64,000 bases of DNA from contig OZ242318.1 of assembly GCA_965208105.1 (NCBI GenBank), forward strand, positions 4,512,001 to 4,576,000, given 5' to 3'. Shown here piece by piece: positions 17,085 to 62,793 of this stretch; position 1 is the first letter of the stretch, and each line of letters begins with the position of its first letter. The DNA is from Candidatus Latescibacterota bacterium (GTDB taxonomy: Bacteria > Latescibacterota > UBA2968 > UBA8231). The notes beneath the pieces are model-generated. The model worked only from the letters and a program-made list of their open reading frames with translations, was not told the origin of the DNA and did no database searches. The translations under genes were made by a program, and so were the position numbers.

Positions 17085-17101
17085 AAGTGAGGAGTAGAAA
17101 T

Positions 17102-18280
17102 ATGCTGGAGATCGAATCGACCCAGGCCTACATGCGGGAAACCGGTGTGGACGCCTGGCTGGTCTACGACTTTCGCGGCAGCAACCCGGTTCTGTGGCAG
17201 CTTGTCGGGGGCAGCAGGGCGACCACCCGGAGAAGCTTTCTGCTGCTGCCCGCGCGAGGCGAGGCGAGGATCATCGCCCACGCAATCGAGAAGGAGGTCT
17301 TCTCGGATCTGGAGGTGGAGGTCGAGTCCTACGCCGGACGGGGGGAGATGCTCGACAGGGTGCGCGAAGCCCTGCAGGGGTGTTCGCGGGTGGCCATGGA
17401 GTACTCTCCCAGGGGCGAGTTGCCCGTCCTTTCGTGGGTGGACGGGGGCACCCTGGAGCTGATCAGGTCCCTTGGAGTGGAGGTGGTTTCGTCGGCCCCG
17501 CTCTCCCAGGTGGCGCTGACCCTGTGGAGCGAGGCGTCCCTGGAGTCACACCTGGACGCGTGCCGCCAGGTGGGCGAGGTCAAGGACGCCGCCTTCGACT
17601 ATATCCGCCAGGGATTGCAGGGAGGATCGTCCCTGACCGAGTCCGACGTCCAGGAGTTCATCCTGAGAGAGTTCCGCCGCCGCAGGCTGGAAACGGATCA
17701 TCCGCCCATCGTCGGCACCAACGCCAACAGCGGCAATCCCCACTACGAGCCCGTAGAAGGGAGGTCGGCGCAGATCGCCCGGGGAGATTGGGTATTGATC
17801 GACCTGTGGGCGAGGCGTCCGGGCGAAGGGAATGTTTTCGGCGACATCACCTGGGTCGGCTACGCCGGCGCCGGGGTCCCGGAGACTCATCAGCGCATAT
17901 TCGACCTGGTCGCCGAGGCCCGCGACAAGGTGGTTGAGCGCTTGCGCCGGGATTGGGACGCGGGCAGGACGGCGCAGGGCTGGGAACTGGACCGGGTGGC
18001 GCGCGACCTCATCGAGGCGGCCGGCTACGGCGCCCGTTTCCTCCACCGCACCGGGCACAGTCTGGGACCGGGTCCGAAGGTACATGCCCTGGGGGTGAAC
18101 CTGGACGATCTCGAGACCCACGACACCCGCGAGATTCTGCCCCGGACGGGATTCTCGGTGGAGCCCGGAATCTACCTGGCCGAGTTCGGGGTGAGACTGG
18201 AGATCAACGTGTACGTGGATGGGCGCTCGGGGCCCACGGTCACCACTCCCGTTCAGGACGAAGTGGTCGAGCTCGTCTAG
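17102..18280 (+). CDS. M24-family Xaa-Pro aminopeptidase-like metallopeptidase
   Basis: NPHY, LIDLW..GDIT, HRTGHSLG, SVEPGIY, GVRLE. Confidence 0.9.
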   Translation: MLEIESTQAYMRETGVDAWLVYDFRGSNPVLWQLVGGSRATTRRSFLLLPARGEARIIAHAIEKEVFSDLEVEVESYAGRGEMLDRVREALQGCSRVAMEYSPRGELPVLSWVDGGTLELIRSLGVEVVSSAPLSQVALTLWSEASLESHLDACRQVGEVKDAAFDYIRQGLQGGSSLTESDVQEFILREFRRRRLETDHPPIVGTNANSGNPHYEPVEGRSAQIARGDWVLIDLWARRPGEGNVFGDITWVGYAGAGVPETHQRIFDLVAEARDKVVERLRRDWDAGRTAQGWELDRVARDLIEAAGYGARFLHRTGHSLGPGPKVHALGVNLDDLETHDTREILPRTGFSVEPGIYLAEFGVRLEINVYVDGRSGPTVTTPVQDEVVELV

Positions 18281-18393
18281 ACCTTATGTATTGACGGAGA
18301 TATGAAAGACCTCCTCCGACTCGGTTGTCGGGGGTTATCTTTGGGAAAACGGAGTTCACCCAAAGACCTATCCCCAGCGAGAAGGAGGAGGCC

Positions 18394-19533
18394 ATGCGTA
18401 AATCTACGAAATTCGTCGCCTTGGACATACATAAAGATTCGATCACCGTCGCCCTGGCCGGTGAAGGCCGAAAAGGGCCAGACCTGTATGGAACGATACC
18501 GTCTACGGGCGCCGCGTTGTCCAAGCTGGCGGGCCAACTGGCCCGTGGTGGGACCTCGTTGCGGTTTTGCTACGAGGCCGGACCCTGCGGCTACGGCGTC
18601 TACCGTCAGCTCACAGCCCTGGGGCACGCCTGCACGGTGGTGGCGCCCTCGCTGATCCCGCGTCGGCCGGGCGACCGCATCAAGACCGACCGCCGCGATG
18701 CTGTGTCTCTGGTGCGGCTTTTCCAACACGGCGAGTTGACCCCCGTGTGGGTGCCCGACGAAGCGCAGGAGGCGATGCGCGATCTGGAGCGCTGCCGGGA
18801 AGACTTCAAGCACGCCGAGCGCCGCGTGCGCCAGCGGCTGAACAGCTTCTTGCAGCGCCACGGCCGGATCTACTCCGGGCGCAGTCGCTGGACCCAAGCC
18901 CACTTTCGCTGGCTGCAGACCCAGCGCTTCGATCATCCGGCCCAGCAGATCGTCTTTCAGGAATACGTGGACGCGGTACAGGAAGCCCAAGGTCGGATCC
19001 AGGGGTTGGACCAGGCCCTGCAGCAGGCGCTGGAGGGATGGTCTTTGGAAGGGGAGACGCGGGCTATGAGGGCGCTGCGCGGGGTAGACACGCTCACCGC
19101 GGTTACGACCCTGGCCGAGTTGGGGGACCTCACCCGCTTTGACTCGCCGCGCCAACTGATGGCCTTCGTCGGTCTGGTCCCCAGCGAGCATTCCAGCGGC
19201 TCCCGCCAAAAGCGAGGGGCGATCACCAAGGCGGGCAACGCCCACGTGCGGCGCGTGCTGGTGGAAGCCGCCTGGTGCTATCGCTTTCCCGCCCGCAAGA
19301 CGGCCGCCTTGCAACGACGCGCCGAACAGACCGCACCCCCCATACAGGCCATCGCCTGGAAGGCACAGAAACGCCTGTGTGGACGCTATCGACGGCTGAG
19401 TGGGCGAGGGATGCCGAAAAACAAAGTCTGCACCGCGATCGCGCGGGAGCTTTTGGGTTTCATCTGGGCCATCGCCTGGGAGCAGAAACGCCCCGGCCGC
19501 CTCGTGGCCAGGAGGCCTCGGATCGCCGCCTGA
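18394..19533 (+). CDS. IS110-family DEDD transposase/recombinase
   Basis: ALDIHK, YEAGPCG, KTDRRDA (DEDD residues), GLVPSEHSSG catalytic-Ser region, GAITKAGN; GGAGGAGG RBS. Confidence 0.95.
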   Translation: MRKSTKFVALDIHKDSITVALAGEGRKGPDLYGTIPSTGAALSKLAGQLARGGTSLRFCYEAGPCGYGVYRQLTALGHACTVVAPSLIPRRPGDRIKTDRRDAVSLVRLFQHGELTPVWVPDEAQEAMRDLERCREDFKHAERRVRQRLNSFLQRHGRIYSGRSRWTQAHFRWLQTQRFDHPAQQIVFQEYVDAVQEAQGRIQGLDQALQQALEGWSLEGETRAMRALRGVDTLTAVTTLAELGDLTRFDSPRQLMAFVGLVPSEHSSGSRQKRGAITKAGNAHVRRVLVEAAWCYRFPARKTAALQRRAEQTAPPIQAIAWKAQKRLCGRYRRLSGRGMPKNKVCTAIARELLGFIWAIAWEQKRPGRLVARRPRIAA

Positions 19534-19596
19534 TAAGCTCATCGTCTCAGAAGCCGGCATAGGACCTTTGCTCATGTAAATCGAAACGGGACAGAA

Positions 19597-19756
19597 GGGA
19601 CCGGTCAGGAGAATCCTCGAAGACACTATGAGGCGCCTATCAGGCTGACCCTCGACTCTAGATTGAGGCCGCTCCGCGACGCACCCAGGACAGGCGGTAA
19701 CCAACCCGCGAATATCAGTCGGATCAACCGTCGCTACAGCGTCCCTTCTGTTCCCG
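19597..19756 (+). ncRNA. Putative bridge/seek RNA of the IS1111-type element
   Basis: Closing stem CGGGACAGAAGGGAC / GTCCCTTCTGTTCCCG; internal loop strands GACACTA (19622-28) and TCTAG (19657-61) match the insertion site; ATATCAG (19712-18) matches the IS right end. Confidence 0.75.
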
Positions 19757-19826
19757 AACAAACTCATGCAAAGATAACACCCGAAACGACCACCCCGGAG
19801 GGGGTTGACAACCGTCAATACATATC

Positions 19827-19992
19827 AGTGTCCCGTCGCAGAAATATGTCGCCATTATTCCGCCGATCCATCCCGGCTCACGGCGTTGCCTTCACTCGCC
19901 GTACACCACTGGTACGACCCGCTCAGGCGCCTGGTGAGCCGGGCGCCTCGGCGGCCCAATTTCGTCAACCTATCTCTGCGACGGAACACTAG
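19827..19992. mobile_element. MITE copy 1 (left TIR interrupted by the IS; the leading CTAG remains at 18277-18280)
   Basis: Near-identical to 62626-62793; ends TCTGCGACGGAACACTAG. Confidence 0.85.
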
Positions 19993-20077
19993 TTCCCCGA
20001 TGACTTTTTCATCGGGCTGCCAGGGCGCCATCCCATCGCAGCTGGCATGGCCACAGGCGCAGCGCAGCCGGGGTTGA

Positions 20078-22420
<2,343 letters not shown>

Positions 22421-60551: not shown

Positions 60552-61373
60552 ATGGCCCCTGCCCCATCTCTCTCACGGACCGCGCTCCCGTTTCTCACGC
60601 CCATAGTCCTCGTCTGGCTCGGTGTCGCCGCAGTTCCTCCGGACGCCGGCGCCGGACCCGAGGAAACCGGACTGGAAATCGCCCGGGATGCCCGCGCACT
60701 CGAGGAAGGCTTCGGCAACTTCACCGCCAGTCAGACCATGGTGCTGCGCAACAAGCATGGTCAGGAGAGCCGCCGCCAGCTCCAGGTAAAGGTCCTCGAG
60801 GTCGCGGGCGGAGGCGACAAGAGCCTGTTCGTGTTCGACCAGCCGCGCGACGTCCAGGGTACGGCGTTGCTCGTTCACGCGCATCGCGAGAGCGCCGACG
60901 ATCAGTGGCTCTTTTTGCCAGCTCTGAAGCGGGTGAAGCGCATCAGCTCGGCGAACCGCTCCGGCTCCTTCATGGGAAGCGAGTTCGCCTATGAAGACAT
61001 GACCGCCCAGGAGGTGGAGAAATTCACGTACCGTTACCTGCGCGACGAGCCCTGCGGCGATTTGACCTGCACCGTCACCGATCGGTTCCCGGTGGACAAG
61101 AAGTCCGGCTACAGCCGCCAGACTGTGTGGCGCGACAGGGACGATCTGCGCGTCTGGAAGGTGCATTACTACGACCGCAAGGACGCCCACCTGAAGACCC
61201 TTACCCTGGAGGACTACGAGCAGTACCTGGGCAGATACTGGCGCGCCCTGACCATGACCATGGAGAACCATTTGACCGGGAAGAGCACTGTTCTTACCTG
61301 GACCGATTTTCAGTTCCGGACCGATCTCGACGAACGCGATTTCACCCGCACGGGACTGAAACGGGCGCGTTGA
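60552..61373 (+). CDS. Outer-membrane lipoprotein-sorting protein (LolA-like)
   Basis: PRDVQGTALL, DDQWLFLPALKRVKRI, SFMGSEFAYED, MENHLTGKST. Confidence 0.9.
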   Translation: MAPAPSLSRTALPFLTPIVLVWLGVAAVPPDAGAGPEETGLEIARDARALEEGFGNFTASQTMVLRNKHGQESRRQLQVKVLEVAGGGDKSLFVFDQPRDVQGTALLVHAHRESADDQWLFLPALKRVKRISSANRSGSFMGSEFAYEDMTAQEVEKFTYRYLRDEPCGDLTCTVTDRFPVDKKSGYSRQTVWRDRDDLRVWKVHYYDRKDAHLKTLTLEDYEQYLGRYWRALTMTMENHLTGKSTVLTWTDFQFRTDLDERDFTRTGLKRAR

Positions 61374-62629
61374 TGCAGCTCCGCGCAAATCTTCTCTCTA
61401 CGGCCCTGGGAACCCTCTGGATTTTATTCGGGGCCATGCAGGCAGGCGCCGGAGCAGGGATCGACGCCGACTTCAGCGGGCGCCTGAACCTGGAAAGCCG
61501 GTGGTTCCCCGAAGCCGGGGCGCACTCCGGCCAGGGCTCCTACAGCGTCGGCCTCGTGGCGGCGCCGGAAATTTATCTCGCCGGCGCGGGTGGCGGAAGC
61601 CTCACCATGGCGCCATTCCTGCGCTACGACAGCGCCGACCGGCGCCGTACCCATGCCGACCTGCGCGAAGCCTACGTTCTCCTGTTCGGCGCCATCGGCG
61701 AGGGCGAATGGGAGTTGCGCCTGGGCATGGAGCAGGTGTTCTGGGGCGTCGCGGAATCGCAGCACCTGGTCGATATCGTCAACCAGGTCGACCTGGTGGA
61801 ACACCCCGGCGGGGAGGCCAAGCTGGGCCAGCCCATGGTCCATTGCACCTGGTCGGCAACCTGGGGCATTGTGGAACTCCTGGCCTTGCCCTATCACCGC
61901 AAACGCACCTTTCCAGGCCGCTCCGGGCGCCTGCGGCTGCCCCTGGTGATAGACGATCGCAAGGTCGAGTACGAAAGCGAGGACGAAGAGCGGAACCTGG
62001 ATCTCGCCGTCCGCTACAGTCACAGCTTCGCCTCCCTCGACCTGGGCATCAGCGCATTCGACGGTACCAGCAGGGAGCCTTCTTTGCAGCTGGTCCCGGG
62101 CGGCGTTCCTTCCCTGCGGCAGCACTATGCCCAGATCAGCCAGTACGGACTCGACGCCCAGCTCACTGCCGGACCCTGGTTGCTGAAGCTCGAGGCCATT
62201 CGCCGCAGCGGCGCTCCCAACCTGTCGGGCAGGGAGGAGGACTACCTGGCCTCGGTAATCGGCGCCGAGTACTCTTTTTACTCGGCATTCGGCACTGCTG
62301 CCGATCTCAGCCTGCTGGGCGAGTGGAATTACGATGGCCGCGGCCGCAAGGCGACGCCGAGCCGCTCTCCCAATACCCTCGAGAACGATTACTTCCTCGC
62401 CGCCCGCCTGGCTTTCAACGACGTCCACGGCAGCGAATTTATCGCCAGCTTTCTGGGAGACGCCGGCCGCGGCACGCGAACGCTGGTCCTGGAACTGGAC
62501 CGGCGAATCCCCGGCGGCGTATCGATAAACCTGGAGTCGATCCACCTCCTCGGCATCGACGAGGCGGACCTGCACTACGCGACCCGCAAGGACAGCTTCA
62601 TCGACCTGGTTCTGAGGTATAGTTTCTAG
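61373..62629 (+). CDS. Outer-membrane beta-barrel hypothetical protein
   Basis: Signal peptide, DLREAY, VFWGVAES..LVD.VNQ, C-terminal LRYSF; typical partner of the MMPL and LolA-like genes. Confidence 0.8.
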   Translation: MQLRANLLSTALGTLWILFGAMQAGAGAGIDADFSGRLNLESRWFPEAGAHSGQGSYSVGLVAAPEIYLAGAGGGSLTMAPFLRYDSADRRRTHADLREAYVLLFGAIGEGEWELRLGMEQVFWGVAESQHLVDIVNQVDLVEHPGGEAKLGQPMVHCTWSATWGIVELLALPYHRKRTFPGRSGRLRLPLVIDDRKVEYESEDEERNLDLAVRYSHSFASLDLGISAFDGTSREPSLQLVPGGVPSLRQHYAQISQYGLDAQLTAGPWLLKLEAIRRSGAPNLSGREEDYLASVIGAEYSFYSAFGTAADLSLLGEWNYDGRGRKATPSRSPNTLENDYFLAARLAFNDVHGSEFIASFLGDAGRGTRTLVLELDRRIPGGVSINLESIHLLGIDEADLHYATRKDSFIDLVLRYSF

Positions 62630-62793
62630 TGTCCCGTCGCAGAAATATGTCGCCATTATTCCGCCGCTCCATCCCGGCTCACGGCGTTGCCTTCACTCGC
62701 CGTACACCACTGGTACGACTCGCTCAGGCGCCTTGTGAGCCGGGCGCCTCGGCGGCCCAATTTCGTCAACCTATCTCTGCGACGGGACACTAG
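62626..62793. mobile_element. MITE copy 2, intact (168 bp including flanking CTAG)
   Basis: Perfect 18-bp terminal IR CTAGTGTCCCGTCGCAGA / TCTGCGACGGGACACTAG; no coding capacity; second copy at 19827-19992. Confidence 0.88.

Follow-up and report, generated by a model that had tools for sequence, protein, structure and literature searches.

An IS1111-group insertion sequence at MITE tips in a Latescibacterota genome and its predicted guide RNA

The window analysed here is a 64,000-nucleotide stretch of DNA from a Candidatus Latescibacterota bacterium (assembly GCA_965208105.1, contig OZ242318.1, positions 4,512,001 to 4,576,000 of the forward strand), whose genome (G000) is a single contig of 4.85 Mb. 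In this window we found an insertion sequence (IS) of the IS1111 group at the very tip of a 168-bp MITE (a miniature transposable element with inverted repeats). We are confident, short of certainty, that its placement is explained by an RNA-guided IS1111-group element that targets the junction left by MITE insertion. This explanation is carried by the anatomy of the IS, by a census of its sites in the genome, by a predicted RNA structure with compensatory changes, and by co-variation of the guides with their targets among relatives.

The insertion and its sites in the genome

The stretch 18277-19992 is made up of CTAG, the 1548-bp IS and the rest of the MITE. By family convention, one copy of the AG core is counted inside the IS. 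The elements concerned are the following.

18277..18280, no strand: CTAG, the IS630-type target site (C, the TA duplication and base 1 of the MITE repeat), now the left flank of the IS
18279..19826, + strand: IS1111-group IS, 1548 bp, with ends set by comparison with the intact MITE
19827..19992, + strand: occupied MITE copy, 166 bp, or the full 168 bp together with CT at 18277-18278
62626..62793, + strand: intact 168-bp MITE, CTAGTGTCCCGTCGCAGA...TCTGCGACGGGACACTAG, whose first CTAG gives the TAG stop of the open reading frame (ORF) 61127-62629

With a slash marking the boundary, the left junction reads gagctcgtCTAG/ACCTTATGTATTGACGG, i.e. gtCTAG/ACCTTATG, and the right junction CCGTCAATACATATCAG/TGTCCCGTCGCAGA, i.e. 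CATATCAG/TGTCCCGTCGCAGA. The IS lies between CTAG and TGTCCC, at the MITE tip, and the occupied MITE opens with the second copy of the AG core (19827-19828) and is 97.6% identical to the intact copy. Excising 18281-19828, that is the IS and one AG, restores CTAGTGTCCCGTCGCAGA, the exact left end of the 168-bp element at 62626-62793. An earlier annotation made from the letters of the window (the sequence-only reading) had given these junctions and the same rebuilt MITE end, and our analysis agrees with both. It had also called the two MITE copies filled and empty alleles, which has to be corrected, as they are paralogues at different loci. The truly empty orthologous site is found in G001, a genome of the same genus, which reads ...gcCTAG/ggttcc at the same peptidase stop codon and carries neither MITE nor IS.

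The stop codon in question ends the gene upstream.

17087..18280, + strand: M24 metallopeptidase gene, an ORF with a Pfam match to Peptidase_M24 (E 1.4e-32)

Its TAG (18278-18280) lies within the CTAG that was used by the MITE first and by the IS second. The history would have run from a CTAG at the stop codon, through insertion of the MITE with TA duplication, to arrival of the IS. Seven IS copies are nearly identical (at least 99.6%), but the MITE copies beside them resemble the reference at only 93.4-98.2%, and for this reason we regard the IS as a later and separate arrival.

We then tabulated the copies throughout the 4.85-Mb genome, as the sequence-only reading had proposed. There are 12 IS copies: seven at an identity of at least 99.6%, four at 95.5-98.4%, and one with a 91-bp internal deletion; the full transposase frame is intact in 10 of the 12. 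All 12 have ...CTAG/ as left flank and /TG... as right flank, more than chance would give, and point into the element, so that a single specific target and a single orientation, as is characteristic of the IS1111 group, were found for 12/12 copies. Ten of them lie in ends of the 168-bp MITE in a single orientation (into the element), having entered the 'AAATATG' end in seven cases and the 'GATAGG' end in three. The copy c2089784 lies in the end of another MITE of about 120 bp (end CTAGTGTTGTGTCC). The right end of the remaining copy, c3966516 (G000:C1:3964969-3966516), meets a 1162-bp IS630-family element at an internal position (about 417), reading CAG/TGGTCG.

The genome contains 97 CTAGTGTC sites (87 empty and 10 occupied), of which 84 are ends of the 168-bp MITE. 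Ten of these 84 MITE ends are occupied and 74 are empty, while 13 of the 87 empty sites lie outside MITE ends. These numbers bear out the idea of the sequence-only reading that a multi-copy MITE serves as landing pad. Base -5, which lies outside the MITE, is a pyrimidine at 10/10 occupied ends vs 39/74 empty MITE ends (Fisher p 0.003), and this fits a guide U able to pair with A or to wobble with G. None of the 12 IS copies lies in a second MITE family (14 copies, ends CTAGTGCC), and no IS insertions were found in this genome at the own ends of the 1162-bp IS630 element (CTAGTGC...).

The MITE is 168 bp long and non-coding, has 18-bp terminal inverted repeats (TIRs) and is present in 90 full-length copies, as expected of a MITE. 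IS630 elements prefer a CTAG/TA target. The window has CTAG-MITE-CTAG vs a single CTAG at the orthologous site of G001, which is the duplication of TA expected from such an insertion, and among MITE copies the outermost base varies (TTAG, ATAG, CTAA) with TA constant. The genome also houses the 1162-bp IS630-family element, in nine full copies with CTAG-flanked repeats and two overlapping ORFs, one matching the N-terminal and the other the C-terminal half of the IS630 transposase model. The MITEs and this resident element have CTAG-flanked ends in common, and only CTAGTG is common to it and the 168-bp MITE. No pair of the MITE's own repeats, as would mark an autonomous parent, was found 0.3-2.8 kb apart in this genome. 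The MITE is classed as IS630-type.

On the IS630 reading, TA is duplicated and the MITE repeat begins at G. The right junction is ...ATATCA/GTGTCCCGTCGCAGA, with GTGTCCCG as the start of the terminal repeat, and the repeat is whole; the flanking TA alone has become CA. The proposal that the IS immobilises the MITE by splitting its TIR is therefore unsupported, because the MITE repeat stays contiguous.

Anatomy of the IS and its predicted guide RNA

According to PMC11187229, IS1111 elements are recognised by subterminal inverted repeats of 11-13 bp, by terminal extensions of 7 and 3 nt, by a long non-coding region downstream of the transposase gene, and by a GL-P----S(t)G motif, with 330-350 aa quoted as the transposase length in the family. 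The corresponding features of the IS in the window are listed here.

18279..18285, + strand: left terminal extension AGACCTT, 7 nt, opening with the AG core
18285..18297, + strand: left subterminal inverted repeat TATGTATTGACGG, with a motif ATG(T/G)ATTGAC common to relatives
18394..19533, + strand: transposase gene, 379 aa, with Pfam and NCBIfam matches and D11, E61, D99, D102 and G260-L-x-P-xxxx-S268-G269
19805..19810, + strand: outward-facing TTGACA beside the right repeat, kept in most relatives, a putative -35 of a circle-junction promoter
19812..19824, + strand: right subterminal inverted repeat CCGTCAATACATA, followed on the 12-bp count by ATC (19824-19826)

The sequence-only reading counted the inverted repeat as 12 bp, with 7 nt to the left end and 3 nt to the right end. 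This spacing stands (AGACCTT on the left, ATC on the right), and the perfect repeat is actually 13 bp. The same 7/3 layout locates the ends of 44 relatives, in which the left extension has the clade consensus AGAC(A/C)T(C/T/A/G). The non-coding region is 293 nt downstream (19534-19826) vs 115 nt upstream (18279-18393), and the motif is present as G260 L261 V P263 SEHS S268 G269. The only departure is the transposase length of 379 aa from the first ATG, outside the quoted range, which is descriptive and not strict.

The transposase has the two-part domain composition of the IS110 family, with an N-terminal DEDD/RuvC-like domain (DEDD_Tnp_IS110, PF01548, 5.6e-13, residues 8-155) and a C-terminal Transposase_20 domain (PF02371, 1.7e-22, residues 226-296). 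It also matches the NCBIfam model NF033542, 'IS110 family RNA-guided transposase', with 263 bits vs a cut-off of 140 over residues 7-361. Weak alignments were obtained to PDB chains of IS621 (E 2e-5) and ISCro4 (E 2e-8), and D11, E61, D99 and D102 fall in register with D, E, D and D of the ISCro4 chain 9t56, as does S268-G269 with its SG. By family analogy, we take the four acidic residues to be catalytic and the S-G pair to be the conserved one. An IS1111-type assignment had been made from the letters of the window, and the DEDD transposase together with four features of the group upholds it. The IS is an active-looking insertion sequence of the IS1111 group.

A seekRNA of the IS1111 type is 70-100 nt long, or a longer precursor; it co-purifies with the transposase and is required for movement. 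When folded, the 293-nt 3' region gave an outer stem and two internal loops, with a minimum free energy of -65.1 kcal/mol and a z of -2.3.

19587..19756, + strand: predicted long seekRNA/bridge-RNA scaffold, with a 14-bp outer stem formed by 19587-19601 and 19741-19756
19615..19668, + strand: target-binding internal loop (loop 1), CCUCG-(guide)-UGAGG, hairpin, CCCUCG-(guide)-UUGAGG
19622..19628, + strand: T guide GACACUA, exact complement of top-strand TAGTGTC
19657..19662, + strand: B guide UCUAG(A), identical to the left junction 18276-18281 (TCTAG/A), which would pair with the bottom strand
19676..19734, + strand: second, donor-type internal loop closed by GCGACG/CGUCGC, with AUAUCAG at 19712-19718

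The sequence of loop 1 is CCUCG-AAGACACUA-UGAGG ... CCCUCG-ACUCUAGA-UUGAGG. The T guide covers the TA duplication and the first five bases of the MITE repeat. The two guides lie on opposite strands of the loop, the top-strand complement 5' of the other, and their footprints overlap on TAG, which is the arrangement given for IS1111 seekRNAs in PMC11187229. In a bridge RNA, which has two programmable loops, the strands of the second loop match both IS ends; in the second loop here, AUAUCAG equals the right IS end and core. This heptamer tracks variant right ends in the relatives L053 (AAC) and L071/L116 (ACC), and is one base off in L076, L092 and L098.

Two other stretches were considered as guides and rejected. 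ACGGGACA (19586-19593), complementary to TGTCCCGT of the MITE, belongs to the conserved outer stem and is unchanged in relatives with other targets. GGACCTT (19562-19568), equal to the left end, ignores the change of left end in L019 and is lost in L020.

On the mechanism we propose, the 3' non-coding region would yield a seekRNA/bridge RNA that directs the DEDD transposase. In loop 1 the 5' strand, GACACUA, would pair with the top strand of TAG-TGTC, and the 3' strand, UCUAG, with that of (T/C)CTAG which lies at the bottom. Their footprints would overlap on TAG, and strand exchange would take place at AG, which is left on both sides of the IS. The 9-nt address Y-CTAG-TGTC would be the junction formed when an IS630-type MITE (repeat GTGTCCCG...) enters its preferred CTAG with TA duplication. 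Most landing sites in the genome, 84 of the 97 CTAGTGTC sites, therefore come from the MITE family. We infer further that the RNA is made and that the transposase binds it, that movement passes through a circular intermediate, and that the joined ends form a promoter, a family property according to PMC11187229.

Co-variation with targets, rival readings and known systems

A single 7-mer match may be due to chance, and we therefore carried out a comparative test across relatives. A scan of one genome per species gave 80 loci encoding relatives, with 57-85% amino-acid identity, from many phyla. Both ends could be placed in 47 of the 80 by the shared repeat motif and the 7/3 rule. L062, L077 and L104 (misplaced ends) and L044 (an internally deleted G001 copy) were removed, and identical 250-nt non-coding regions were merged, leaving 34 and the window. 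L065 and L090 fell outside the fixed columns, which left 33 rows and 30 unique guide pairs. The non-coding regions align well, with a conserved scaffold and variation concentrated in the two strands of loop 1.

Our analysis revealed that the T guide matched its own right flank over at least 7 contiguous nt in 19/30 cases, vs 12/870 cross pairs (fixed alignment columns). The B guide matched its own left flank over at least 5 nt in 19/30, vs 44/854 cross pairs. For either guide, 0 of 10000 permutations reached the observed mean match. Folding the 33 sequences to a consensus gave 29 pairs, 12 of them with compensatory changes; 95.8% of cells are paired vs 34-47% with slid partners, and 0 of 500 shuffles were as good, the structure having been predicted from the same alignment as was used for this pairing test. 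At -5, guide and flank carry the same base in L019 (C), L020 (A), L040 (T) and c2089784 (C). In the sister genome G001 the guide is retuned, with GCGCACUA for TGTGC in place of GACACUA for TGTC, and at its TAGTGTGC site it would form seven Watson-Crick pairs and one G.T. These results support the claim that an RNA guides the IS against the MITE tip, as two guide strands match the target and co-vary with the targets of relatives.

A number of observations weigh against this explanation. The left flank of c3966516 is unrelated; with a right flank internal to the IS630 element, this copy is therefore rearranged, which points to a deletion or to off-target recombination after insertion. In 11 of the 30 pairs the T guide matches the flank over less than 7 nt. 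Of these short matches, L093 and L106 are one-base register shifts in the fixed-column read-out, L050 and L069 resemble one-mismatch, off-target or rearranged copies, and L070, L074 and L086/L089 have a different guide 3' end. The copies c2701797 and c2923420 have the B guide CAUAGA and yet lie at CCTAG. The relatives in the co-variation set are phylogenetically non-independent. No convincing co-varying candidate for a left-end guide was found in the donor loop among the relatives, and a consensus promoter scan of 18200-20050 found none. An Rfam search of 17500-20500 with E up to 1 gave 0 matches, and curated families therefore do not cover this RNA. The stretch 18304-19952 is covered piecewise by contigs from RNA libraries, one of which bridges the right IS end into the MITE; these contigs come from relatives at 90-95% and may be DNA carry-over, and for this reason are not evidence of transcription. 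Neither a circle-junction joint nor an IS-skipping joint was found in the contigs of X1, X7, X15 and X16, an absence that says nothing either way because contigs lose rare forms.

Other explanations have to be weighed against targeting of the MITE junction by an RNA-guided IS1111-group element. We think it improbable, though worth serious thought, that the address is just a short motif of 8-9 nt and its association with the MITE incidental, without selection for transposon tips. The 13 empty sites outside MITE ends are in line with such a motif, base pairing reaches only the first five bases of the repeat, and with 84/97 sites being MITE ends, ten hits out of ten are unsurprising (0.87^10, about 0.24). 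Against it, sites of this type recur in independent settings. In relatives of 78-94% nucleotide identity from the same genus, family and class (genomes G001, G016, G030 and G010), CTAG was found at 7/9 recovered left junctions and repeat-like starts (GTGT.../GTAT...) at 5/7 recovered right junctions. For two of these right flanks a partner repeat lies at a distance of 164 and 195 bp; the right flanks of L019, L020 and L021 have none within 1.5 kb, and their ends are only 'repeat-like'. The window and 44 relatives make up 45 loci with defined ends, of which 19 sit at CT/AG and 11 have an inverted partner of the right flank within 1.5 kb. The partnered flanks include MITEs of about 130-165 bp in several Gammaproteobacteria and in a Desulfobulbaceae metagenome-assembled genome (MAG). 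In L041 the partner is 1179 bp away and the enclosed full-length element encodes an IS630-family transposase (NF033545, 210 bits). The retuning of the G001 guide to another repeat-like end likewise argues against an incidental motif.

It is far less probable that the transposase protein itself recognises the MITE repeat or a hairpin and that the RNA matches are coincidental. One 7-nt match in 293 nt is expected by chance about once, and the subterminal repeats are probably read by protein. Both loop strands, however, change with the flanks across the 30 guide-target pairs while scaffold and protein stay similar, and the B guide reads position -5, outside the MITE. Moreover, dependence on a seekRNA has been shown by experiment for four IS1111 members (PMC11187229). 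Least credible of all, and hardly to be expected, is a reverse order of events, with the MITE inserting beside a resident IS, or a composite of IS and MITE moving as a unit. IS and MITE are indeed adjacent in 11 of the 12 copies. Removal of the IS, however, gives back a whole MITE with a CTAG at either end, and on its MITE side the junction reads CA, where insertion of the MITE at that place should have left the TA duplication. The MITE stands in either orientation relative to the IS (7 vs 3 of 10), the divergence of the adjoining MITEs (93.4-98.2% alike) vs that of the IS copies (at least 99.6%) does not suit a unit, and 74 MITE ends with the same 8-mer are unoccupied.

The sequence-only reading knew of no description of this specific pair of IS and MITE. 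The pair itself was well seen; its reach was understated, as relatives in the same genus, family and class, and in other phyla, share the type of site. Targeting is somewhat more general than had been supposed. We put forward tentatively, and with doubt slightly outweighing belief, that an IS1111 clade spread over several phyla is a hyperparasite of IS630/Tc1-mariner-type transposons, its guides tuned to the host CTAG plus the invader's first repeat bases and retuned as MITEs turn over. Such a composite address exists only after integration, and if the proposal is true, one transposon's niche is therefore made by the activity of another.

The RNA-guided mechanism and the targeting of repeats and TIRs by IS1111 and IS110 elements are already established; it is the target that is new. 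A 2003 paper by Partridge and Hall reportedly concerns an IS1111-group element that targets the terminal repeat of another transposable element. IS4321/IS5075 of the IS1111 group do so (PMC11187229), and resemble the IS described here in their subterminal repeats and in targeting the terminal repeat of another element in one orientation. What differs is the target, here the tip of a non-autonomous 168-bp IS630-type MITE with about 90 copies in the chromosome; the address spans the CTAG integration junction, and the host is an uncultured Latescibacterota MAG. ISEc11/ISXne4, ISPa11 and ISKpn4/ISPst6 share the downstream RNA, the guide order, the overlapping footprints and natural reprogramming of close relatives (PMC11187229). 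Their targets, however, are a linear site, REP sequences (repetitive extragenic palindromes) or attC sites, and their seekRNAs were demonstrated experimentally, whereas the present RNA is predicted from sequence and the transposase has 379 aa.

Multi-copy repeats are known as targets from IS621, ISPa11, ISPpu9/10 and the Coxiella IS1111. IS621, ISPpu9 and ISPpu10 of the IS110 group have a two-loop guide RNA, a dinucleotide core and a multi-copy extragenic repeat as target (PMC11208160). In contrast to the IS in the window, their RNA is 5'-encoded with reversed guide order, they lack long subterminal repeats, and a REP is not the end of a transposon. The founding member, IS1111 of Coxiella burnetii, inserts in a chromosomal stem-loop that recurs more than 50 times in the genome; that target is described as a chromosomal stem-loop and not as an IS630-type MITE end, and no guide analysis accompanies it (PMC2104537).

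In the literature searched we found no IS1111/IS110 element or clade aimed at the CTAG-plus-repeat junction of IS630-type MITEs; unsurveyed supplements could list one. MITE or IS630-end targets might be listed in the logos of more than 300 ISs (PMC11187229, Fig. 8 source data) or in Supplementary Table 5 of PMC11208160. The word 'MITE' occurs 0 times in PMC11208160, 'MITE' and 'IS630' occur 0 times in 10.64898/2026.08.14.744561, and IS110 appears only in the reference list of PMC3184786. This absence is limited to the searched texts and is no proof of being unpublished.

The IS offers a natural example of an RNA-guided recombinase with a safe and renewable landing pad, namely the integration scar of another transposon. 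Because the address often lies exactly on the TAG stop codon of a gene, the gene is left undisrupted. The guide code of the clade can be read directly from the 30 natural guide-target pairs: the top strand is addressed over 7-10 nt and the bottom strand over 4-7 nt, with overlap on TAG. This code is useful for reprogramming IS1111-type systems.

Variation among MITEs and IS copies

Both MITEs in the window sit exactly on the TAG stop of the upstream gene (18277-18280, ORF 17087-18280; 62626-62629, ORF 61127-62629). CTAG is rare in the genome, with 1649 occurrences over 4.85 Mb, and a stop codon in such a context may therefore be one of the principal places where IS630-type elements enter.

In many MITE copies a change in one terminal repeat is matched in the other (e.g. 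GTGTGCCG...CGGCACAC, GTTTCCCG...CGGGAAAC, CCCGCCGCAG...CTGCGGCGGG), and the ends stay complementary, which suggests that a hairpin or fold-back imposes a constraint or that the ends correct each other. The 14 copies of the second MITE family (e.g. G000 142615-142711) are about 167 bp long and about 98% alike. Their internal 97 bp are about 88% identical to the first family, while the terminal repeats differ widely (CTAGTGCCTGCTTGCGCAA), as though a shared core had exchanged its ends.

The diverged IS copies c2701797 and c2923420 have CAUAGAC for UCUAGAU at the equivalent of 19657-19663 in the window, and the CUAG match to their own flanks is thereby lost; the transposase frame of c2923420 is broken. 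The left-flank-reading positions 19656-19658 and 19663 also vary in the contigs of other samples.

Full IS copies are rare in the related genomes, G001 and G016 having one each. Solo left or right ends and internally deleted copies (e.g. end fragments of 160-400 bp) are numerous in G001 and G030 (loci L023 and L029-L039). In a Gammaproteobacteria MAG, L065 and L066 measure 1616 bp, vs 1539 bp in their sister copies, and the extra 77 bp are a tandem duplication of the right-end segment, with the subterminal repeat included. In L067, also from a Gammaproteobacteria MAG, reverse-complementing the first 12 bases of the right flank (AGGAGGCTGTCT...) gives the end of the left flank, ...AGACAGCCTCCT, and this copy appears to lie at a CTAG where two MITE-type repeat ends abut.

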